The notes: generated from the letters alone by a model not told the origin. Counted from the first letter of the stretch, positions 44,668 through 63,269 are shown. The stretch: DNA of 64,000 bases from a virus (IMGVR_UViG_3300025121_000013), one strand, 5' to 3'. Numbers and translations are program-made.

Positions 44668-44709
44668 TTCGCCAATGGGGTCCGGTTAGACATAGACCCC
44701 ATTGGCGAA
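44668..44709. terminator. 15-bp perfect hairpin between convergent genes (bidirectional terminator candidate)
   Basis: TTCGCCAATGGGGTC / GACCCCATTGGCGAA. Confidence 0.75.
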
Positions 44710-45974: not shown

Positions 45975-46500
45975 TAGGGCCTGGAGCGGTGATGTGTGCA
46001 ATGCCTTCTTGCACGGTTTGGTGTTCCCGCTCCAGGCCCAACCCTTTTCTTTTTGGGCGGTGGGGTAGACCGATGCAACTCACTCGGATTTGTACCCCAC
46101 CGCCCAGGACCCTTTAGACGTCTAAAGAGCCCTTGGTGAAGGAAAGTTTTATGCGGTCTTATGGCAGAGGCCCATGTAAGTGAGTTTGCCGGCCAGCAAG
46201 GTGGTTCCCCCAAGATCTGTTAACTTGGGGGAACCCTTTCCTTCATTCTTTTAATGGGGGAAGGTTTGGATGTGGACTTACAGACTTTCCCCGTGAGGGT
46301 ATTCGCTGTCGCCTTAACATGAAGTCATCAAGATACAAGCGCCTTGACGCACTTCCCTTCCCCCATTTGCTTCGGCCGTTGGGCTCTTGGCAAGTCCAGC
46401 GGCTAATCCCAGGCTGAGGCCGTAGCCCGGGAAAAACCACACAAATTCTACTTCGCCTAATTCCTTCCGTGCCCTGCCGGCCTCCAGAAGGTTTCGGACA
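45975..46500. ncRNA. Putative large structured ncRNA A
   Basis: Perfect stems 45977-89/46027-39 (13 bp), 46054-67/46093-106 (14 bp), 46137-46/46236-45 (10 bp), 46203-14/46224-35 (12 bp), 46253-64/46356-67 (12 bp); 16-nt palindrome 46112-27; no credible CDS. Confidence 0.65.
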
Positions 46501-46510
46501 TGATAGAATT

Positions 46511-47404
46511 CTACTTCACGGCTTCCTTGATCTTGTCCTTGGCGAAGTCCTGGATCTCGTCGACGTACTTCGTTCCGCTGTCGACCGATCCATCCGCTTT
46601 GAACTTGAGGGTTTTTTCCTGAGCCGGGAAGTCAACCCAGGACTTGAAGGAAGGGGGGCCGCCGAACAGGCCGGAGAGGAGGGTTTTTTCCTCTCCGTAG
46701 ACCATGGGGCCAAACTCCGTTGTCCCAAGGGGAACCACGATTTCATTCCTGTTCTCAACTACCCACCAGGGCTTGCTGATGCCCTGGCTGATCATCCTCT
46801 TGATCAGCCAGGACATGGTTGTCTCGGGACCCAGGACCATGCCGGCAGAGGTGATTGGCGCAATCACTGCTCCCTCCACCAGATCCCGGTATATCGTCCA
46901 CGGGAAGACGACGCTGTCCTGGCCATTCTCCTTGGCCTGGAAAACGAGGCCCTTGAGGATATGGGGATTCTTCATCCCCTCCTCGTTGGTGATCACCTGC
47001 ATCCCATCGACCGTCACGAACCTGAAACCGAGGAACTCCGGATTCTTCACCTCAGCCCGGAGTTCCTCAACAACGTCCTTGGCGAGCTGGTTTTCGCCGG
47101 AGATCGCCTTCAAGGCCAGATACATGTCCTTGGCCCCGGTGAGGCTGTTTCCCACGGAGCTCGCCACGTCCTTCATGCCTTGGGAGCTGAAGCCCCCGAA
47201 GGCCGCGAAGAGAACGATCATTCCCAGGATCATGACCAGGGTGATCTTCATCGTCCGAAGGACCTTTGTGGTTGTTTTCTTGGCCACATGTTTCAGGTAT
47301 TCCTTCGCCTTCTTGTTCTCCGTACCCTTCTCTTCTCCGACTTGGCATCCATCTTCCATTGTGTCCTCGCTTTCATGTAACATTGTTTTGGGTGAATTAC
47401 ACAA
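46511..47404 (-). CDS. GC-rich membrane-anchored hypothetical protein
   Basis: One TM helix (ITLVMILGMIVLFAAFGG); G/C-ending codons produce shadow ORFs on the other strand. Confidence 0.7.
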   Translation of the reverse strand: MCNSPKTMLHESEDTMEDGCQVGEEKGTENKKAKEYLKHVAKKTTTKVLRTMKITLVMILGMIVLFAAFGGFSSQGMKDVASSVGNSLTGAKDMYLALKAISGENQLAKDVVEELRAEVKNPEFLGFRFVTVDGMQVITNEEGMKNPHILKGLVFQAKENGQDSVVFPWTIYRDLVEGAVIAPITSAGMVLGPETTMSWLIKRMISQGISKPWWVVENRNEIVVPLGTTEFGPMVYGEEKTLLSGLFGGPPSFKSWVDFPAQEKTLKFKADGSVDSGTKYVDEIQDFAKDKIKEAVK

Positions 47405-48054: not shown

Positions 48055-48302
48055 TATTGACTCAAATCTAAAACTATTTTGTTTTGATATTTAATAATTT
48101 CACAAACCATATTTGGCAAAAGCACATATAATCTAAATGTGTCCAAATGCATCACTATATCTTTTAAATCTGTTTTCAAGAATTTATCTTTTTTTCTTTT
48201 GATTCGAAATTTATCTCCAGGTTTAAGATCTTTTATTGTTATCTCTTTTACAGTACATGATGAACTGTTCATCTTTTTCTCCATGTCTGGGATTGACTCC
48301 AC
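48054..48302 (-). CDS. Small hypothetical protein
   Basis: IKDLKPGDKF motif; in cassette. Confidence 0.5.
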   Translation of the reverse strand: MESIPDMEKKMNSSSCTVKEITIKDLKPGDKFRIKRKKDKFLKTDLKDIVMHLDTFRLYVLLPNMVCEIIKYQNKIVLDLSQ

Positions 48303-48303
48303 T

Positions 48304-48339
48304 GGGGCCGGATTGATTTCCTAATACCAATCCGGCCCC
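48304..48339. promoter_or_regulatory. 12-bp intergenic hairpin (processing site or attenuator candidate)
   Basis: GGGGCCGGATTG / CAATCCGGCCCC between co-directional genes. Confidence 0.55.
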
Positions 48340-48345
48340 CTCTGC

Positions 48346-48597
48346 TTATCTGTTGTTTTCTTCCCATCTCCGGAAGGCGATCAACAGATATCCCGCGTTC
48401 CCACCGAAAGGGCAAGATTCCCATCCCTTCCAGGTTCCAATTCTTTTAAAGGTTGCACATCCCGGCGGGGATGCGTCATTACATTCAACCACCTTGGAAA
48501 AGGGAACTTGAAATCTCCCTAATCCAGCCCCTTGGAGACAGGGATTTTGAATCATTGAAGACTCCATTTGAGGGTTGATAATTACGCAAACATCCAT
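48346..48597 (-). CDS. Small hypothetical protein
   Basis: 83-aa ORF overlapping the upstream gene. Confidence 0.45.
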   Translation of the reverse strand: MDVCVIINPQMESSMIQNPCLQGAGLGRFQVPFSKVVECNDASPPGCATFKRIGTWKGWESCPFGGNAGYLLIAFRRWEENNR

Positions 48598-48830
48598 TCG
48601 AAGGGAACTGAGAGGTTTCCCTTCTTCTGATTCTTATTATACCATTTATCTGCTTCTCTCTCCGAGACCACCCTTTCCTCCATGAGGTCACCTTTTTTGT
48701 TTCTCTTGGAAAGGATGAAAGTACTGCTTTTGAGAATGAGTTCTTCAACCGTTTCCTCGGTATGAACGACAGCGATTATATCCGACATTGTTATGTCCTC
48801 TCTGAGGGTTGATATAGGAATGAAAACCAC
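48582..48830 (-). CDS. Small hypothetical protein, first gene of the cassette
   Basis: 82-aa ORF just downstream of the 14-nt motif. Confidence 0.5.
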   Translation of the reverse strand: MVFIPISTLREDITMSDIIAVVHTEETVEELILKSSTFILSKRNKKGDLMEERVVSEREADKWYNKNQKKGNLSVPFEWMFA

Positions 48831-48852: not shown

Positions 48853-48866
48853 ATTAATATATATAG
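48853..48866 (-). promoter_or_regulatory. ATTAATATATATAG motif, copy 2
   Basis: Exact match; heads the minus-strand cassette 44717-48830. Confidence 0.6.
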
Positions 48867-54694: not shown

Positions 54695-54743
54695 GACCTC
54701 AAGACAGGGATAAGGGAATTTCAAAAGTCCCTGTCTTGAGGTC
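54695..54743. terminator. 16-bp perfect hairpin between convergent units
   Basis: GACCTCAAGACAGGGA / TCCCTGTCTTGAGGTC. Confidence 0.75.
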
Positions 54744-54941
54744 TTCTGAATATCATTAATTCCAGATGAAAAGTATTCCTACTAACCAAAAAAATGGAAT
54801 GAATTCACTCGGATCTTTTTGAAACATCAAAACTGCTGCGGCACTAATTGCAATTGTCCCAACCCCTTGACAGGCTGGTTTCATGTCAAATCCTTTCTTA
54901 GAGAGAATAACCAATTCAATTCTTTATTATTTTTTGAATAA

Positions 54942-55433
54942 TTAATTTTCTAAAGTATCGATTTTAATACCAACTAAATTTAGATTTTCATTAAGGATAT
55001 GCAGGAATTTTTCCTTTCTTGCATTTCCCACGAATATTCCCATCCCCAAAGTTATCAACAATGGAGAGCCGTTTGTCAGACCAACCACTTTTTTGGAAAG
55101 TTCATCCATTGACACCTTATCAGATGCCTTTAGCCATAGAAGAGACGTCTGGATCAAAGGCAGTATGGATTCTTTTGAGCCACGATAAGAAATTATATCT
55201 TTACACCCGCAAACTCTGGTGCTCAATTTAATTTCAGTAATTTCAGAAATATTTCCCCCAAACATCAATTCCCATCTCACCAAATTTTTTATTGCATCCA
55301 GAACAAAAAATTCGGTTTTGACCGCAGGAATATTTTCCTTGTCTCTTGAGTCATTGAATATTCTGAAATTGGTTTTTGTTATTATTCCTTCCATTAGGTT
55401 TTGACCTTGTTCTGTTAGAGCCCCTCGGTCCAT
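54942..55433 (-). CDS. Hypothetical protein
   Basis: 163-aa ORF with SD. Confidence 0.55.
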   Translation of the reverse strand: MDRGALTEQGQNLMEGIITKTNFRIFNDSRDKENIPAVKTEFFVLDAIKNLVRWELMFGGNISEITEIKLSTRVCGCKDIISYRGSKESILPLIQTSLLWLKASDKVSMDELSKKVVGLTNGSPLLITLGMGIFVGNARKEKFLHILNENLNLVGIKIDTLEN

Positions 55434-55448
55434 GCTTTTATCCCCCTT

Positions 55449-55844
55449 TTAATCTGAAGTGATTCTAGTTTTCTCAAAATTTTCCATTTTCGTATCATAA
55501 AGAATTTTTATCAATGAATTAAAAATCCATATACACATTAAGAATGTATGTCCAAAAGTTCCTAAACTAATTATATAAAATATCCATAATATATTTTTAA
55601 AATAGAATATAAAATCTTTTTTAAATTCAAGCTTCTTTTTCGTATATATAAATGCTAAATCAAATAAATTTTCCTTAAAGAATAAAATAGGCATAGAAAC
55701 GATTAATGCTAAGGTAATGAGAATTGTATAGAATATGAACACATCAAAAAATATATAGTTTTTAAAATAAACACCATAAATAAATATTCCTAAAAATATC
55801 AATTGAAAAAACATTTGTGAAAAATATTTTTTTAGGTTTTCCAT
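55449..55844 (-). CDS. Multi-pass membrane protein
   Basis: Three hydrophobic segments. Confidence 0.55.
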   Translation of the reverse strand: MENLKKYFSQMFFQLIFLGIFIYGVYFKNYIFFDVFIFYTILITLALIVSMPILFFKENLFDLAFIYTKKKLEFKKDFIFYFKNILWIFYIISLGTFGHTFLMCIWIFNSLIKILYDTKMENFEKTRITSD

Positions 55845-55892
55845 TCTTAGAATAGTCCTTTCATTAAGTGGGTATAAAAATCCTTCTCGTTT

Positions 55893-55906
55893 ATTAATAT
55901 ATATAG
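55893..55906 (-). promoter_or_regulatory. ATTAATATATATAG motif, copy 3
   Basis: Exact match; heads the minus-strand cassette ending at the 54695 hairpin. Confidence 0.6.
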
Positions 55907-55974: not shown

Positions 55975-56526
55975 ATGCCATTTAAGACTTTTTTTAATTG
56001 GCTTTTTGACGATTCAATCAATTCTGAAATTCCAAAACCTAAATTAAATGAAGAAGGTAAAGTTTTAATTCCTGATATTTTGAAATACAATTCTCCAATC
56101 ACTCATACCTATGTAATTTCTTTATTTTTAAATAGTCCTGAATTAAATCATTTTTTAAATAAAAAATTTAATAATATCAATTTAAGATATTTAGAAAAAA
56201 AGGAATTATTCTTATTCATTAAAAAGTGTGTAATTGATTTTAGAATTAAAAGAAATATGATGCTTTATAAACCTTATAAAAAACAAGAAGAATTATTTAA
56301 AGGTTTAAGAAGTAAAATTCCTTTATTAAAAAATGATGATATAGAATTATTATCAGACCTTTGTTTAAAATTACCAGATGAAGAAAAAGATGAAATATAT
56401 TCTGGATTGGGCTTATTGAAGGAAAAACCAGTTAAAACAAAAATCAAAAAAGAAACTAAAAAGAAGCAAAAAAATAAGATTAGTAAAGATGACTTCTTAA
56501 AAAATATAAGTGTGATTAAGAAATAG
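55975..56526 (+). CDS. Hypothetical protein, possibly clamp loader small subunit (gp62-like)
   Basis: 183 aa with a Lys-rich tail; weak pattern resemblance; AAAGAACAAA motif at 55945. Confidence 0.35.
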   Translation: MPFKTFFNWLFDDSINSEIPKPKLNEEGKVLIPDILKYNSPITHTYVISLFLNSPELNHFLNKKFNNINLRYLEKKELFLFIKKCVIDFRIKRNMMLYKPYKKQEELFKGLRSKIPLLKNDDIELLSDLCLKLPDEEKDEIYSGLGLLKEKPVKTKIKKETKKKQKNKISKDDFLKNISVIKK

Positions 56527-56535
56527 AATTTTGGA

Positions 56536-57065
56536 TGGATGGGCCCCAAAGGCGGAATGACGGCGCCGGTTGGGGCCCATCCAGAATTACTAGGCAAAGG
56601 CCTGCGAGAGCAAAGGGGTTTCTCTCAGCTGCAGGCCTTTGCCTTTCTGCGGTGAAGCGATCTAAGTCTTCCAATCCACGAGAGCCCAGCGTCCCAGGTC
56701 TCTTGGTTTGGGATTGGATAGCCTTAGACCATCTTTCGCTTTTTCATGGCACGCCCTTTCAAAGTTGGGGTTGGTTTTCACTCCAGGTGCTCCGGACTTC
56801 TGGCGGTCAGTGAAAAGCTATCCGTGTTCTAAACAGGAAAAACCTCAACACGAGGTATTTCATCCTGTCTCCTTTCGATGATGGTTCATTCCAAGGTTTC
56901 CCAGAATTAAGTTTCCCTTGTCTAAATGAAACGTGGCTGGAGATCACAGGGCGTTGCCCAAGCGTAACGGATAAGAGGAAAGTCTAGATCTTCTTAACTA
57001 ACAGATCCGAAAATTCCTTAGTTCCGTTTCTAGTGACCCGCAGTTTTCCCTCATGCCCTTGAGGA
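56536..57065. ncRNA. Putative large structured ncRNA B downstream of rpsA
   Basis: Perfect stems 56536-49/56570-83 (14 bp) and 56592-605/56631-44 (14 bp); long irregular hairpin about 56652-56746; further stems TTTTCACT/AGTGAAAA, ACAGGA/TCCTGT, ACGGA/TCCGT. Confidence 0.65.
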
Positions 57066-57098
57066 CCACAAATTAACGATTATCAATATCCCCCATCT

Positions 57099-58754
57099 CT
57101 ACTTCGTTTCGCTTCTCTTCATGACAAAACGGGGCTTGTTGAACCCCGGCTTTCCCTTGGAAGTCGGCCCTCCTCCCTCCATCTTGTTGATGGAGAAGGC
57201 CATCTTCCGTTCCTCCTTGTTGATGGAGACCACTTTGGCCTCCACGGAAGATCCGACCGGGAACGAGCCGGCGAGGTTCTTCGTCAGGTCCTTGGGGATC
57301 TCGGAAACGTGGACCAGGCCTCGCAGTCCGCCCTCAAGGGAGAGGAACACGCCGTAGTCGGCGGTCCCGGTCACCGTGCCGCAGATCTTCGTTCCGACGG
57401 GGAACCTTTCCCCGACGGTATCCCAGGGATCGGGCTCCAGTTGCTTGACGCCCAGGGCAATCCGCCCTGAAGAGGGATCGATCCGGATGATCTTGGCCCG
57501 GATCGTTTCCCCGATGTGATAAAGCTCAGCGGGCGTCTTGATGTGCCCGGTCCAGGAGATGTCCGAGATGTGGACCATGCCGTCGATTCCCTCATCGATG
57601 CCGAGGAAGATCCCGAAGTCGGTCATGGCCTTGATCTTGGACTCGATGGTGGTGCCCACCGGGTACTTCTCGCTGACGCTCTCGATGGGGTCCTTCTTGA
57701 TGGCCTTCATGGACAGGGCCAGCTTTCTCTGGGCCGGGTCGATCTCGAGGACGATGGCCTCGATCTCCTGGCCGATCTCCACGACGCTTGCAGGGTTCTT
57801 CACCCTCTGGTGGCTGATTTCCGTGGTGTAAATCAGGCCACGGATCATGGGGGCCACCTCGACGAATATCCCGTATTCGGTCGTCGAGGTCACCAGGGCC
57901 CGGATCTTCGTGCCCTTCTTGAACTTCTCGGCGGCCTCGATCCAGGGATCCGGAAGGAGCCGCTTGATGCTCAGCTCGATCTTCTCTTCCTCGGCGTTGA
58001 CGTTGACGACCTTCACCTCGATGTTCTGGCCCACGGTGTACTCCTGGGTCAGATCCGTGATCTTTCCCCAGGAGACCTCCGAGATGTGGACGAGGCCATC
58101 TACACCTCCGAGGTCAAGGAACAGGCCGAACTTGGTGATGGCCTTGATGTCCCCCTTGACGACGGAGTCTGGAATGATCCGGGCAAAGGCTTCGGCCATG
58201 TTGGCCTCCCTCTCCTTCTCCAGGATCGCCCTCCTGGACACGATGACATTCCTCGTGTCCTCGTTGAAGGTGATGATCTTGAAGTTCATCGCCTTTCCCA
58301 GCACCTCTTCGGCCGAAACGGGGTGAAGGTCCACCTGGGAGCCGGGAAGGAAGGCGGGAACGCCGATGTCCACGGAGAAGCCGCCCTTGACCTGGTTTTT
58401 TACCAGGCCGAGGATATCGAGACCTCCCACGTAGGTTTCCTTGAGGCTTTCCCAGGTCACTCCCATGTTCTTTCCTATGGAGATCTGGACGGGCCGTCCA
58501 TCCTTCTCGAGGCCATCGAGAATGACTTCGATGAAGTCACCCTCCTTGACGGCCAGGCTTCCATCCTTGGTCGGAAGATCTCCGACCGGGATCAAGCCCA
58601 TGGTCATGCATCCCACGTCGACCATGGCGTTGATCTCGTTGATCTGGGTGATCACGCCGTCGACGACCGTGCCGATTTTGAAGATCTTCGGCTCGAAAAT
58701 CGACATGACGTTGTCTTGGGTGTATTCTGAATCTCGAACAGACGTCTTTTCCAT
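57099..58754 (-). CDS. rpsA: 30S ribosomal protein S1, six S1 domains, GC-rich
   Basis: VKGGFSVDIGVPAFLPGSQVD; FGLFLDLGGVDGLVHISEVSW; FGIF....GIDGMVHISDISW; LGVKQL..DPW; SD AAGGAG. Confidence 0.95.
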   Translation of the reverse strand: MEKTSVRDSEYTQDNVMSIFEPKIFKIGTVVDGVITQINEINAMVDVGCMTMGLIPVGDLPTKDGSLAVKEGDFIEVILDGLEKDGRPVQISIGKNMGVTWESLKETYVGGLDILGLVKNQVKGGFSVDIGVPAFLPGSQVDLHPVSAEEVLGKAMNFKIITFNEDTRNVIVSRRAILEKEREANMAEAFARIIPDSVVKGDIKAITKFGLFLDLGGVDGLVHISEVSWGKITDLTQEYTVGQNIEVKVVNVNAEEEKIELSIKRLLPDPWIEAAEKFKKGTKIRALVTSTTEYGIFVEVAPMIRGLIYTTEISHQRVKNPASVVEIGQEIEAIVLEIDPAQRKLALSMKAIKKDPIESVSEKYPVGTTIESKIKAMTDFGIFLGIDEGIDGMVHISDISWTGHIKTPAELYHIGETIRAKIIRIDPSSGRIALGVKQLEPDPWDTVGERFPVGTKICGTVTGTADYGVFLSLEGGLRGLVHVSEIPKDLTKNLAGSFPVGSSVEAKVVSINKEERKMAFSINKMEGGGPTSKGKPGFNKPRFVMKRSETK

Positions 58755-58819
58755 GTAACATTCTCCTTGTTGTGAGGTGGTATGGTTTGATTCTGAGACG
58801 ATTTTCTGGAACTTGGGGA

Positions 58820-59446
58820 CTAGATCTCGAACCCGGAGGCCCGGATTTCCTTCTTGAGGGCCAGGGGGATCCTCACCTTGGACAACTCAATCCCGGAACC
58901 CAGACAGGTGGGACAATCCCTCGAGCTCTTGATCTTCCTCCCGAGGACCGGCTCGGTGCATTTTCCTGCCCCCTTGCACTTCGGGCAGGGCACATCATCT
59001 GCCCGGAAGCGATTCTTCCGGTGCACATACACGCCGGTGCCGTTGCACCGGGAACATGTTTCCACTTCGCCGGCCCGGCCGCCGCAGACGGCGCAGACGT
59101 CTGTCCGGATCCCCCGGCCTCCGCAGGATGGGCAGGTGATTTCCTCCTCCCCTATCTGGAAGATGAACTTCTGACCCGCCCCCTTGCAGGCGGGGCAGAT
59201 GGGGGATGAGGGTGCCACCGACCAGGATTCTCCTGCCTCGATGGCGGCCCGGATCTTTTCGTTCTTGGCCGCCATGATGGCCTTGAACTCCTCCATGGTC
59301 TTGGTTTTCGAAATCAGGGACTCCAGACCCCGAACCTCATTGATGTCCACGTACTGGATTTCAACCTCGGCTGCATCATCCATCGGTAACATCCCTTCGT
59401 GTGGGTTTCGGCGGAAGCTCCGCCATGATGACCTTGACCATTTCAA
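58820..59446 (-). CDS. Protein with six DnaJ-type CxxCxGxG motifs and no J domain
   Basis: CPACKGAG, CPSCGGRG, CAVCGGRAG, CSRCNGTG, CPKCKGAG, CPTCLGSG. Confidence 0.8.
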   Translation of the reverse strand: MKWSRSSWRSFRRNPHEGMLPMDDAAEVEIQYVDINEVRGLESLISKTKTMEEFKAIMAAKNEKIRAAIEAGESWSVAPSSPICPACKGAGQKFIFQIGEEEITCPSCGGRGIRTDVCAVCGGRAGEVETCSRCNGTGVYVHRKNRFRADDVPCPKCKGAGKCTEPVLGRKIKSSRDCPTCLGSGIELSKVRIPLALKKEIRASGFEI

Positions 59447-59813
59447 GGTCCTTTTCTTTTTTTATTGCCATGAGCATGAGAGCGGAGCCCACCAAAATTC
59501 CTCTCTCAGAACATATGACTCCTTGTTTCTGTATCGAATTTAAGATTTTGGAAACTTCATCGTCAAGTCTCCAAAATTCTTTTATCGGAGTTCCAGGGGT
59601 TTGACTCATGTCATTTAATTTCTGAGCAATGGTTGATATTCTTTTCCACCCATGTCGAATTCTTTTAATCATTTCAGAAGCCTCTGTTTCAAGATTTCTT
59701 TGAACATTTATTTCTTTCTTGCCCAATTTTTTGTATTCTTTTCCAGAACCTTTTCCGGCTTTTTTGGATTTCTTTTGCTCAGCCATTCGTTTTCTCCTTG
59801 GACGTTGTAACAT
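59376..59813 (-). CDS. Basic hypothetical protein, first gene of the rpsA cassette
   Basis: 145-aa ORF with a Lys-rich N-terminus; SD AAGGAG before MAEQKK. Confidence 0.55.
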   Translation of the reverse strand: MLQRPRRKRMAEQKKSKKAGKGSGKEYKKLGKKEINVQRNLETEASEMIKRIRHGWKRISTIAQKLNDMSQTPGTPIKEFWRLDDEVSKILNSIQKQGVICSERGILVGSALMLMAIKKEKDLEMVKVIMAELPPKPTRRDVTDG

Positions 59814-59903
59814 ATTTTTAGTTTATTATATTCTGTAAAGTTAATATAATTTATCCCCATAAAGTGAGTATAAAAAATGTGTATTAAATATCTCAATTCA
59901 TTA

Positions 59904-59917
59904 ATTAATATATATAG
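59904..59917 (-). promoter_or_regulatory. ATTAATATATATAG motif, copy 4
   Basis: Exact match; heads the rpsA cassette. Confidence 0.6.
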
Positions 59918-60026: not shown

Positions 60027-63000
60027 TTGGAATCAATAAAAAGTTCTTTGGGAAACTGTATGGAATGTTCTTTACAAAACGAACCTTCTTGTATTTTAGA
60101 AACAAATTGTGAAGATGATCTTTCAAAAGTCGATGTAATTTTCGTAGCAGAAAATCCAGGAAAAGAAGAAGTGGAATATATTCCTCCCACTCCACTTATA
60201 GGAAAGTCTGGACAAACTTTTAGAAAATATTTTAAGAAATTAAAACTTGATAAATTGAATTATTTAATTACAAATGTAGTTTGGTGTTTAACTTTAAATG
60301 AAGATGGAACAACAGGAAATCCTTCACAAAAGGTTATAGATTGTTGTAAAGAAAATTGCTTTGAGTTAATAAGAAATTGTAATCCAAAGTTGATTGTAAT
60401 TATGGGAAATTCTCCTTTGTCTGCATTCAATATTGCAAAGACTGGAGTCACAAAATGTAGAGGTAAAATTTACGATTGGGAAGATTATAAAATTTTCGTG
60501 ACAGTTCATCCATCTTATGTAAATAGAAATAGGATTGTTGAAGAGCCTGAATTTGAAAGAGATTTATCAAAGGTCGCAGAGTTCTTTGGAATAAAAAATG
60601 ATATTGAACAAGGAAAAGAAAGAAATATAAATATTACAAATATAAAAGGAAAATATCAATATTCTATACCTGAGAAATATTATACAGATAATTATCGGTT
60701 GGTCGATGTCCAATATTTAGGAAGAAAAAGAGAAGTCATTTATATTTTTAGAGATAAAGATAATAAAAAGGAGATTTATAAAACAGATGATAAATATTAT
60801 TGTTATACATGTTTAGATGATAATGAAAAGAAAAAAATTGTACCCTATGAAAAACTTAATCAAACGTTTTTACATTATTCTGATAAATCTTTATTAGATT
60901 TTAATTGTACGTATGAGGGTGATAATAGAATTACGTCGAAACATGCGTTAGATTATTATTTGAATTCAAAAGGCGAGGCTCCTAAACTTGATTTAAATAT
61001 TATGTATTTTGATATTGAGGTTGACACTGGAGAATCTCGTTCATTTCCAAAACCCACTGAAGCAAATTATCCAATCAATTTAATCACAAAGATTTATCAT
61101 AAGATTAAAACCACATATGTCATTGATAATAAAACAGAGGAAATTCAAAATATTGAAGGGGTTATTATAAAGAAGTTTAAAAACGAAAGAGATTTAATGT
61201 CATCTTTTATTTCTGATTTTAAGAATGATGACCCTGATATTCTGAGTGGTTGGAATTGTATCGATTTTGACCTCCAGTATATTTTTAATAGATTACCTAA
61301 AATAAATATTCGTCAAGAATCTATGTCTAAATTTGGTGAATTTTATGTTGATGGAAAAAGATTTGTTTGTAATCTTGCAGGGTGTGTTCCTTTGGACCAA
61401 TGCTTTTTATATAAGAATTTTACCTTCACAAAAAAGGAAAATTATAAATTAGGATTTATCGCCCAAGATGAATTAGGTTATACGAAAGTCGCAATGGATC
61501 TTCCGATCAATCAAATGTATTCAAAACTTTTAAATAAATTCATTGGTTATAACATTCGAGATACGGAACTTCTTGAAGGCCTTGAAAATAAACTAGAACA
61601 TATAAATCTCTTAAATGAAATTAGAACTATTTGTCATACGAGTTTTGATAATTGTTCGACATTTGGCCAGATTGATGCAATGTTAATTTCTTTTTTGAAG
61701 CAAAGAGGGTTTGGTTCAAAGAATAGTAATCAACATATGGAAAAAGTTAAATATGCAGGGGCTTTTGTTTTTGAGCCAATTCCTGGCATTTATGAAAAGG
61801 TTGTAGACTTTGACTTTAAATCACTATATCCAAGTTTGATCATTACATACAATATTGGAATAAATAATTTTAGAATTAAATTAGAGGATCCTTCTTTGGG
61901 GTTTGAATTATCGAAACACCCGGAGAATCTTCCTGATGAAATATCTGTAATTTTTGATCCAACTTTCAGAGCTGAGAAAAAAATTATAAAGAAGGAAGCA
62001 CTTCTTAACATCATTAAAAAAAATAATTATATTCATACAATTAATGGTTGTTTATTTGAAAATCATGATAAAGAGTTATCTGTTTTAGGAGAAGCTTTAA
62101 AAGAGATTTTAGATTCTCGTGATAGATATAAGAAGATGATGTTTAAAGCCGTAGAAGAAAAGAAAAATGACGAATCAAAATTTTATGATACAAGGCAACA
62201 AGTTTATAAGGTTTTGGCAAATGGAACATATGGAGTTTTAGGAAATAAAGCATTTAGATTTTATGATGAATCTTGTGCTGGTGCAATTACATTATCAGGT
62301 CAAGAAGCTTTAAAGAATTCAATTATTTATGGAAATAATTTTATGGAAAGTTTAAATTTAGAAAAGCCGATGGTAATTCCTGATGAGATAACTAAGAAAG
62401 AAATTTTCTCAGATGAAATGCCTGATATTAGAAAAAGGATCAAATATATTGTAACTGGAGATACCGATTCAATTTTTTGTTGTTTTGAAAAATTTAAAAA
62501 GGAAAAGAATGTTGAAAATATTAGAGGCTGGTGTAAAGAAATTGAAAATTATTTAAATAATGTTATTATGCCACATATTGTTAGAACACATAATGTCGAT
62601 CCAAAAAATAGTGTTTTAAAATTAAAAAATGAATTGATTATTTCTCGTGGATTATTTTTAGCAAAAAAGAGATACGCAATTCATGTTATAAATAATGAAG
62701 GAAAATCTGTTGATAAAATGAAATTTATGGGTGTTGAAATTAAAAGATCAGATTATCCGCAAAAGTCAAAAGAGTTTTTAACTGAGTTGGTAAATTTGAT
62801 TTTAAAATCAGAAAAAGTTTCTATTACAAAATTAATGAAATTTGTAGAGATGAAAGAAAAAGAATTTATTGAGGCAATAAATAATGGAGAAAAAACAATC
62901 GCAAGACCTGTTTCAATTGGAAAAGAGATAGAAGAATATAAGACTGTTCCTCAAGGAACAAAGGCTATGTTGAATTTTAATGATTTAATTTATGACGCTC

Positions 63001-63269
63001 ATGATGTTGGAAGTCGTGGATATATGTTTAAAATTAAAGGGATAAATTTAGATTTAGCTCCAGATGATGTAAAGAAAAATTATCAGAAGTTTTTATCTTC
63101 TGGAAAAAAATTGGAAGTTATTGCCATTCCTGATGAAGAACAACGATTACCAAAATATATTATTCCTGATATGAAAGAACAATTAAAATTTTCTTTTACT
63201 GATCGTTATGAACTTATGTTAAAACCTATTTTAGACATAAAAACTAAAAATACAGTTCTAACTTTTTAA
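60027..63269 (+). CDS. polB: Family B DNA polymerase with an N-terminal family-4 UDG-like domain
   Basis: UDG-like: C..C.L, AENPG..E, G.SG, TNVV.C, C.C, HPS. Exonuclease: FDIE, GWN...FD, YN..D. Polymerase: DFKSLYPS, K..ANGTYG, GDTDS, KKRY. Confidence 0.93.
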   Translation: MESIKSSLGNCMECSLQNEPSCILETNCEDDLSKVDVIFVAENPGKEEVEYIPPTPLIGKSGQTFRKYFKKLKLDKLNYLITNVVWCLTLNEDGTTGNPSQKVIDCCKENCFELIRNCNPKLIVIMGNSPLSAFNIAKTGVTKCRGKIYDWEDYKIFVTVHPSYVNRNRIVEEPEFERDLSKVAEFFGIKNDIEQGKERNINITNIKGKYQYSIPEKYYTDNYRLVDVQYLGRKREVIYIFRDKDNKKEIYKTDDKYYCYTCLDDNEKKKIVPYEKLNQTFLHYSDKSLLDFNCTYEGDNRITSKHALDYYLNSKGEAPKLDLNIMYFDIEVDTGESRSFPKPTEANYPINLITKIYHKIKTTYVIDNKTEEIQNIEGVIIKKFKNERDLMSSFISDFKNDDPDILSGWNCIDFDLQYIFNRLPKINIRQESMSKFGEFYVDGKRFVCNLAGCVPLDQCFLYKNFTFTKKENYKLGFIAQDELGYTKVAMDLPINQMYSKLLNKFIGYNIRDTELLEGLENKLEHINLLNEIRTICHTSFDNCSTFGQIDAMLISFLKQRGFGSKNSNQHMEKVKYAGAFVFEPIPGIYEKVVDFDFKSLYPSLIITYNIGINNFRIKLEDPSLGFELSKHPENLPDEISVIFDPTFRAEKKIIKKEALLNIIKKNNYIHTINGCLFENHDKELSVLGEALKEILDSRDRYKKMMFKAVEEKKNDESKFYDTRQQVYKVLANGTYGVLGNKAFRFYDESCAGAITLSGQEALKNSIIYGNNFMESLNLEKPMVIPDEITKKEIFSDEMPDIRKRIKYIVTGDTDSIFCCFEKFKKEKNVENIRGWCKEIENYLNNVIMPHIVRTHNVDPKNSVLKLKNELIISRGLFLAKKRYAIHVINNEGKSVDKMKFMGVEIKRSDYPQKSKEFLTELVNLILKSEKVSITKLMKFVEMKEKEFIEAINNGEKTIARPVSIGKEIEEYKTVPQGTKAMLNFNDLIYDAHDVGSRGYMFKIKGINLDLAPDDVKKNYQKFLSSGKKLEVIAIPDEEQRLPKYIIPDMKEQLKFSFTDRYELMLKPILDIKTKNTVLTF

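Follow-up and report, generated by a model that had tools for sequence, protein, structure and literature searches.

A GC-rich ribosomal protein S1 gene within a phage transcription unit that probably grew by accretion

We analyzed a 64,000-nucleotide stretch of viral DNA (IMGVR_UViG_3300025121_000013, henceforth the window) and focus here on positions 56,536 to 59,917, where a gene for a homologue of bacterial ribosomal protein S1 (bS1) lies in a GC-rich island. The window derives from a phage genome of ~27% GC that belongs to the RIF_PHAGE_CIR_29 population (Al-Shayeb et al., 2020) and has, at positions 60027-63269, a gene for a PolB of the T4 type that is joined to a uracil-DNA glycosylase (UDG) domain; between 56.5 and 59.5 kb its GC content rises to 55-63%. 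Read 5' to 3' on the minus strand, the S1 locus consists of a promoter-like 14-mer, a Lys-rich open reading frame (ORF), a zinc-finger gene, a spacer, the S1 gene, ~450 nt free of ORFs and two hairpins (Table 1). We judge it probable that these elements belong to a single phage transcription unit, read leftward, which was built up by accretion and was not acquired as a ready-made cassette, with an S1 that is probably ribosome-directed and a GC-rich message that is under selection. The ancestral core would have comprised the 14-mer, the zinc-finger gene divergent from UDG-PolB, and terminator hairpins at the junction with a convergent, conserved gene for 172-183 aa. To this core, the RIF_PHAGE_CIR_29 lineage would have added the orphan Lys-rich ORF, between promoter and zinc-finger gene, and a Desulfobacterota-type bS1 with its ~450 nt spacer, between zinc-finger gene and terminators.

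The evidence for accretion comes from relatives of the phage, defined as phages with a PolB 54-59% identical to that of the window. In three such loci (L027, L028, and L029) and in a 248-kb JGI contig, the zinc-finger gene is divergent from PolB and abuts the convergent orthologue of orf183, the gene that borders the S1 unit on its 3' side, and there is no S1 gene within 10 kb. A preliminary description of the window had regarded motif, basic ORF, zinc-finger gene, S1 and a 3' RNA as one four-part unit. The synteny search dissolved this unit: the motif and the zinc-finger gene occur in relatives that have no S1 at the locus, while S1 and the Lys-rich ORF are both absent from the relatives' loci compared. 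By its conservation in the clade, orf183 marks what appears to be the ancestral right-hand edge of the locus. The S1 gene carries its own ribosome-binding site but is not preceded by a copy of the 14-mer, using instead the promoter motif and the hairpins of the unit. We also considered S1 as a phage moron equipped with its own promoter and terminator and rejected the idea, as no 14-mer lies before S1 and the gene is inserted inside an existing unit.

The 14-mer CTATATATATTAAT at the head of the unit occurs in the window only on the minus strand, with all four exact copies lying upstream of minus-strand genes. Exact copies also precede the zinc-finger gene in L027, L029, and L031, and a copy with one mismatch does so in L028. 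Because the same 14-mer is found before the zinc-finger gene in relatives although the zinc-finger proteins have diverged to ~28% identity, it can be regarded as a strongly conserved, clade-wide promoter-like element, and 14-mer and zinc-finger gene as an ancestral pair. Its core loosely resembles the early-promoter consensus of phiKZ/OBP-type jumbo phages (PMC7058600), a resemblance that is the sole pointer to the early timing supposed in the preliminary description and that we take as a lead only.

The zinc-finger protein is predicted to begin with a helical hairpin followed by six CxxC motifs that would form three zinc sites. A full HMMER scan returned a family of ~118 clusters of mostly similar length; in an alignment of 42 members, all but one of the 12 cysteines in the motifs are invariant, the exception being nearly so, and an N-terminal helix with the signature AKN-x-LL is common to the family. 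The window protein is colinear with its positional orthologue in L028 (E 2e-11) and as divergent from the family as the members are from one another (27% vs 28%), its nearest relative among billions of sequences, some of them assembled from the site of the phage itself, being 49% identical over a partial match. The preliminary description had called it a DnaJ-zinc-finger protein. Its CxxCxGxG repeats and PF00684 match bear out the second half of that name, but a J domain was not found: Pfam matches are limited to PF00684 and a weak one to anti-TRAP. Likewise, the AlphaFold model (predicted local distance difference test score, pLDDT, 87) yields weak fold matches only, to DnaJA2, DNAJA3, the Cys-rich domain of E. 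coli DnaJ, BSD2, and anti-TRAP. While these proteins share the repeated CxxCxGxG motifs, the phage protein differs from DnaJ/Hsp40 in having six motifs rather than four and neither a J domain nor C-terminal client-binding domains, and from DnaJ, BSD2 and anti-TRAP alike in its family-specific N-terminal hairpin with AKN-x-LL and in the location of its gene next to PolB. A PHROG match to a 'Q-like antiterminator' (E 1.8e-8 over 46 residues) was rejected as a cross-match of the Cys-rich motifs. On these comparisons the zinc-finger gene qualifies as an old core phage gene and not as cargo, and, because it occurs without S1 in relatives, its product does not appear to be an S1-specific partner. 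The Lys-rich ORF upstream, which overlaps the start of the zinc-finger gene by 8 nt, is annotated as a gene in independent assemblies; relatives of it were not found in Pfam, PHROG, or the Atlas. The GC content at its third codon positions (GC3) climbs from 0.24 to 0.53 along the gene.

The preliminary description had raised the possibility of a chimeric assembly, in which GC-rich bacterial reads were misjoined into a phage contig. The extreme compositional contrast is all that speaks for such an artifact, for which we see next to no chance. Independent assemblies from different samples (L005-L007) are 100% identical to the window through both GC/AT junctions, and the exact zinc-finger protein is present on 21 contigs from ENA, JGI and NCBI, produced by several assemblers (megahit- and SPAdes-style names). 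Moreover, Rifle groundwater has yielded three circular genomes of RIF_PHAGE_CIR_29, all manually curated, of 264,740 to 264,917 bp and with no confident host assignment (Al-Shayeb et al., 2020; PMC7162821). RIF_PHAGE_CIR_29_18 corresponds to a 264,822-bp NCBI contig (GCA_902731115.1) that, in a comparison of 16.8 kb, matches the window at 100% identity with the sole exception of a 78-bp in-frame gap in S1; its S1 is 95% identical to that of the window. The island is also internal, with phage DNA on either side, and contains a clade-core phage gene, the zinc finger. Given the identical junctions in L005-L007, the occurrence of the zinc-finger protein on 21 contigs and the three curated circular genomes, the assembly is sound and a chimera is excluded for practical purposes.

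The S1 protein itself is, as had been described, full-length and of the Gram-negative type, encoded in GC-rich codons behind a phage promoter-like motif. All six domains are recognized by Pfam, and the protein is colinear with residues 19-521 of E. coli bS1 in a single alignment (336 bits). The best matches are S1 proteins of the Desulfobacterota type (~520 bits, 46-47% identity). Among 5.8 billion clusters, including assemblies from the same site, no protein falls between 47% and 95% identity to the phage S1, and pattern scans of viral and genome contig collections did not find a close relative. The INPHARED phages gave no DNA match to the window, and their S1 proteins are at most 35% identical. 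In a tree of the 119 best hits and two outgroups, the phage S1 sits on a very long branch within an unresolved Desulfobacterota-like group; under the C20 model the length of this branch is at its upper bound, which limits the claim to a long branch in that group. The phylogeny that was expected to reveal the host therefore does not name it. The 119 homologues share 212 positions with an invariance of at least 95%; the phage S1 deviates at 82 of them, as against 0-5 for random homologues. It also lacks the long acidic N-terminal extension of its nearest Desulfobacterota homologues.

Divergence had been noted in domains 1 and 4 before, and in domain 4 it proved stronger than described. Domain 1 is the least conserved of the six, with 10 of 23 near-invariant positions changed, while domain 2 is among the best conserved. 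In domain 4, the motif G-(I/V)-E-G-L-I-H-V-S-E-M-S-W-T, near-invariant in 121 homologues, is replaced by M-I-R-G-L-I-Y-T-T-E-I-S-H-Q, so that eight invariant or near-invariant positions of the RNA-binding strand are altered; the corresponding strand G-L-(V/I)-H-x-S-(E/D) is kept in domains 3, 5 and 6 of the same protein, whereas domain 4 reads GLIYTTEIS. The 78-bp deletion in the sibling genome RIF_PHAGE_CIR_29_18 removes the last strand of domain 4 together with the linker and is flanked by ACCCGG microhomology. In two further assemblies, contigs break within S1. The rewritten motif and the deletion in the sibling genome suggest that domain 4 is under relaxed or altered constraint, with no clear sign of a purposeful switch in specificity. 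The earlier proposal that the domain-4 change shifts mRNA selection thus gains no support, since relaxed constraint fits at least as well.

A central question is whether such a remodelled S1 could still join the ribosome. In E. coli S1, Phe5 and Phe9 are the pivotal contacts to uS2 and Lys43 is a minor one (Byrgazov et al., PMC4288201). The N-terminal anchor of the phage protein, VMSIFEPKIF, aligns with LMxMYEExxF of the nearest homologues. The Phe5 position is Val and a Pro lies within the motif; the Phe9 position is aromatic, and the motif follows the pattern of the nearest homologues. The equivalent of E. coli Asp39 is retained as well. Since the aromatic anchor persists at the Phe9 position, while the equivalent of Lys43 is Met, binding of the phage S1 to the ribosome is plausible. 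There, the protein would most likely supplement or replace host S1 on the host 30S subunit and favor phage messages, having evolved fast and with domain 4 under altered or relaxed constraint.

The GC-rich coding sequence is not peculiar to S1. GC3 amounts to 0.79 in the zinc-finger gene and to 0.77 in ORF297, a gene of a second island (see below), as against a window median of 0.18 and values of 0.14-0.22 in the phage genes checked, and in each of the AT-rich relatives the zinc-finger gene ranks near the top in GC3. When the window and three relatives were analyzed together, the first genes behind a 14-mer (n = 12) exceeded the GC3 median of their locus by 0.148, compared with 0.025 for the 157 other genes (Mann-Whitney p = 1.4e-4); of the 16 genes of L029, the five driven by the motif rank highest in GC3. 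We then compared the folding of the messages, summed over 300-nt windows, with that of 60 shuffles preserving protein and codon usage. None of the 60 was as stable as the native sequence for S1 (z = -7.9), ORF297 (z = -6.2) or the zinc-finger gene (z = -3.1), while controls gave z scores of -3.0 and -0.8 (two bacterial rpsA genes), +0.4 to -1.4 (other bacterial genes), and +0.4 to -0.9 (AT-rich phage genes). Because the S1 message beats its synonymous shuffles while the spacer behind it folds like shuffled sequence, the unusually structured part of the unit is coding RNA and not the 3' tail. The GC-rich, strongly folding S1 sequence may thus be an extreme case of a clade-wide tendency toward GC-ending codons behind this promoter class, the message being selected, in a class of genes with high-output expression, to be stable and/or to use codons adapted to the host.

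Several observations weigh against a ribosomal S1 with a selected message. Of the four first genes that the motif drives in the window, two, at 55844 and 3963, show no GC3 enrichment. Synonymous shuffling levels local variation in GC3, which may inflate the z scores somewhat, and one of the rpsA controls itself reached -3.0. A diverged copy of the S1 island was not found, so selection on the silent sites of S1 is not demonstrable by conservation. The amino-acid make-up of the zinc-finger protein is itself shifted, with a GARP (Gly, Ala, Arg, and Pro) content of 0.31 against a family mean of 0.19, which fits long residence under GC pressure but also import from a GC-rich relative. Finally, the Met at the position of Lys43 lies in domain 1 and stands where E. 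coli S1 has a contact to uS2, albeit a minor one.

The large structured RNA that had been described 3' of S1 shrank to its two terminal hairpins. The full 572 nt behind S1 fold with z ~-5 on both strands, but this signal comes from the hairpins: the 449 nt at 56650-57098 have z = -1.4, and 150-nt windows from 56680 on stay within ~2 standard deviations of shuffled sequence. Rfam 15 gave nothing at gathering score anywhere in the window; the best permissive hit, Thr_leader (26.6 bits; gathering score 55), overlies only the two hairpins. A scan for tRNA and tmRNA was also negative. The spacer has no codon periodicity, no convincing ORF under table 4 or with TAG read as Gln, no relic of cmk or sppA (tblastn with the genes flanking rpsA in the nearest bacteria), and no relative in the related phage loci compared, nor do the three GC-rich non-coding stretches of the window resemble one another. 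The hairpin pair (-68 to -72 kcal/mol) adjoins the orf183 stop codon at a convergent junction, with no clean U-run next to the stems on either strand. Other convergent junctions in the window also bear single long perfect hairpins (44668-44709 and 54695-54743), and L029 has a tandem pair at its own junction between the zinc-finger gene and the orf183 orthologue. In view of this position and these parallels, the hairpins are likely bidirectional terminators, and the simplest reading of the 3' region is terminators plus a spacer. Upstream of it, a terminator-like hairpin with a T-run lies on the minus strand at 57130-57148, within the final 17 codons of S1; as the region has just as many terminator-like sites as shuffling predicts, this one is probably due to chance.

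Table 1. Positions of the predicted features of the S1 transcription unit and its convergent neighbor in the window.
Feature	Position	Strand	Evidence or remark
Promoter-like 14-mer CTATATATATTAAT, operon head	59904..59917	-	4 exact copies in the window vs 0.18 expected
Sigma-70-like hexamers TTGAGA-18-TATACT, 7 nt downstream of the 14-mer	59867..59896	-	Best consensus match of the region, 10/12; consensus match only
Lys-rich orphan ORF, 136 aa, first gene of the unit	59376..59786	-	AAGGAG ribosome-binding site before ATG
Zinc-finger protein, 187 aa	58820..59383	-	PF00684, E 2.3e-12; six CxxC motifs, mostly CxxCxGxG
Intergenic spacer, 65 nt, with AAGGAG ribosome-binding site of S1	58755..58819	-	Sequence reading
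bS1 homologue, six domains, 551 aa, GC3 0.83	57099..58754	-	Pfam S1 x6, E 1.4e-76
In-frame segment of 78 bp (aa 341-366, last part of domain 4 plus linker), lost in RIF_PHAGE_CIR_29_18	~57658..57733 (L001 ~11020)	-	Ends ambiguous, repeat
Non-coding spacer after S1, GC-moderate (~47%)	56645..57098	-	Folding z = -1.4
Two tandem hairpins, perfect 14-bp stems	56536-56583 and 56592-56644	.	z = -7.9 and -6.5
orf183, convergent neighbor, clade-conserved	55975..56526	+	46-56% identity to a 172-179-aa gene in L027, L028 and L029

Other histories of the locus have to be weighed against accretion. A dedicated translation-takeover cassette, in which basic protein, zinc-finger protein, S1 and 3' RNA act together, would account for the placement of all parts in one apparent transcription unit and for the overlap of the Lys-rich ORF with the zinc-finger gene, which suggests translational coupling. 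We nevertheless hold it to be very improbable: four relatives have the motif and the zinc-finger gene without S1, the Lys-rich ORF is an orphan, the 3' region past the hairpins folds like shuffled sequence, and L029 carries a similar hairpin pair at the same junction without S1 at the locus. More of a contender, though still an unlikely one, is a fresh import, by which the block made up of S1, its spacer and the zinc-finger gene recently recombined into the phage from a GC-rich replicon, either an unsampled relative or the host, as would the island of ORF297, and has yet to drift to the AT-rich composition of the phage. The GC content changes in an abrupt step at 56530, genes of a genome with ~60% GC would be expected to reach a GC3 of 0.8, the amino-acid composition of the zinc-finger protein is GC-shifted too, S1 is clearly of cellular Desulfobacterota-type descent, and the GC gradient in the Lys-rich ORF could be a recombination joint. 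Yet in billions of sequences, including those assembled from the same site, the closest relatives of the supposed import reach only 47% (S1) and a partial 49% (zinc finger), and the loss of 39% of the near-invariant positions of S1 implies long independent evolution. Besides, GC3 of the zinc-finger gene is already raised in AT-rich relatives and follows promoter class throughout the clade, no integrase or flanking direct or inverted repeats mark the ends of the island, and the spacer holds no trace of cmk or sppA.

The remaining alternative concerns the function of S1, which could act off the ribosome as a free RNA-binding factor, for instance as a cofactor of a phage RNase, an RNA chaperone, or an accessory to transcription or replication. 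Host S1 serves the RegB RNase of T4 as a cofactor. The weak conservation of domain 1 with its changed Lys43 equivalent and the Pro inside the anchor motif would suit such a role. Off-ribosome roles of host S1 in relation to phages are well known (review, PMC13157829), and Al-Shayeb et al. (2020; PMC7162821) leave the role of the phage proteins 'on or off the ribosome' open. Against this stand the retention of all six domains in colinear order with bS1, the good conservation of domain 2, the aromatic anchor residue and the Asp39 equivalent, and a gene for ribosomal protein S21 in the same genome, which fits ribosome-directed remodelling. We give the off-ribosome role about as little chance as a fresh import and favor a ribosome-directed S1.

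Phage-encoded S1 is not new as such. Six-domain S1 proteins in huge phages have been reported for the very genome set to which the window belongs, the RIF_PHAGE_CIR_29 population (Al-Shayeb et al., 2020, Nature 578:425; PMC7162821). The parts of that report available to us do not describe the anatomy of the locus, the insertion into a zinc-finger unit, the GC3 of 0.83, the excess mRNA folding or the rewritten domain 4. They state that S1-bearing phages rarely have Shine-Dalgarno sites, which is a misfit here, as 42 of 74 ORFs in the window have one, S1 included. Thus, S1 in this set of phages is known. New are the history of the locus, the extent to which S1 has been remodelled, and the finding that promoter class goes together with GC3 and mRNA folding. 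The jumbo cyanophage PhiMa05 likewise carries a bS1 from a cellular lineage, proposed to replace the host protein (ISME J 2026; PMC13157829); its gene adjoins those of other ribosomal proteins and groups with the likely donor clade, whereas the window S1 stands alone on a long branch. The bS1 of a Microcystis jumbo phage in the phage collection (MaAM05) is only 29% identical to the window S1 (tblastn), and the bS1 genes of PhiMa05 and of the window are independent acquisitions. With E. coli bS1 (PDB 6H4N chain y, 6BU8), the phage protein shares six S1/OB domains in the same order and the aromatic residue at the Phe9 position, but differs in the replacement of most of the RNA-binding strand motif of domain 4 and in the Met at the position of Lys43. 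The window also recalls the codon adaptation or recoding of selected phage genes, treated in the general literature on codon matching between phage and host, in that selected conserved genes form GC-rich islands in an AT-rich genome; here, however, the GC3 excess is statistically linked to one conserved promoter motif across the clade, and folding goes beyond what codon usage accounts for.

Further features of the window and its relatives bear on composition and gene order. The second GC island (45975-47404) contains the membrane-anchored orphan ORF297 (297 aa; 46511-47404, minus strand) followed by ~540 nt of non-coding DNA. Without its two terminal 13-14-bp hairpins, this stretch (46115-46510) has z = -6.5 on the minus strand and -2.4 on the plus strand, and is thus strongly structured on the minus strand, unlike the spacer after S1. 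A third patch, at 48236-48616, has ~46-50% GC and is largely non-coding; another 14-mer (48853-48866) stands shortly upstream of it, and z is ~-3.4 on both strands. Ahead of an NAPRTase gene in L027 (6300-6755), ~450 nt at 46-50% GC come after a 14-mer and contain no ORF of at least 60 aa; this GC-rich stretch may be a long structured leader. L027 (3325-3837) and L028 (3532-4059) encode orthologous proteins of 170-175 aa that are 48% identical and have the top GC3 of their loci (0.54 and 0.35). A homologue was not found in the window, and the pair is a further instance of GC enrichment that is specific to a gene and shared by relatives. At 54756-55906, the window holds another leftward unit, in which a 14-mer (55893-55906) precedes orf131, orf163 and one more, small ORF, with the hairpin at 54695-54743 as its last element. 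The unit is not present at the same position in L027, L028 or L029 and looks like a moron-type insertion, because the genes on its two sides have orthologues that lie next to each other, or nearly so, in relatives.

Beyond PolB, genes for ribosomal protein S21 and for Cpn10 (GroES-like) follow within a few kb (L001 4181-4730; L005 1-359). As they keep their position in all relatives examined, both can be counted as core genes of the clade, unlike S1. More than 500 proteins carry the UDG-PolB marker. The family-4 UDG domain fused to the PolB N terminus is kept in most of the best 120 proteins listed (54-59% identity), and a PolB relative of 1529 aa (P0160) carries an additional intein-type domain (PF14890). 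PolB relatives in the viral contig collection reach only 23-27% identity, too distant for use.

If confirmed, these findings would assign an origin to the locus, with relatives showing S1 tacked onto a conserved operon and not imported as a module. A heavily remodelled S1 with one RNA-binding domain decaying would, if confirmed, limit the claim of simple mimicry of host S1. A GC island that tracks promoter class and excess folding would caution, again if confirmed, against reading such islands as signs of recent transfer or as indicators of the host, and would suggest a testable layer of control at the level of the message in huge phages. More tentatively, and with considerable doubt, we put forward that in this clade of T4-like huge phages one promoter class marks messages with GC-ending codons and extra structure, serving mRNA survival and/or the use of host tRNAs before phage takeover, and that the captured S1 gene was enrolled in this class. 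RIF_PHAGE_CIR_29 would be its extreme, with a GC3 of ~0.8 and folding z scores of -6 to -8. If this is true, composition islands in phages would tell of expression class instead of horizontal transfer.

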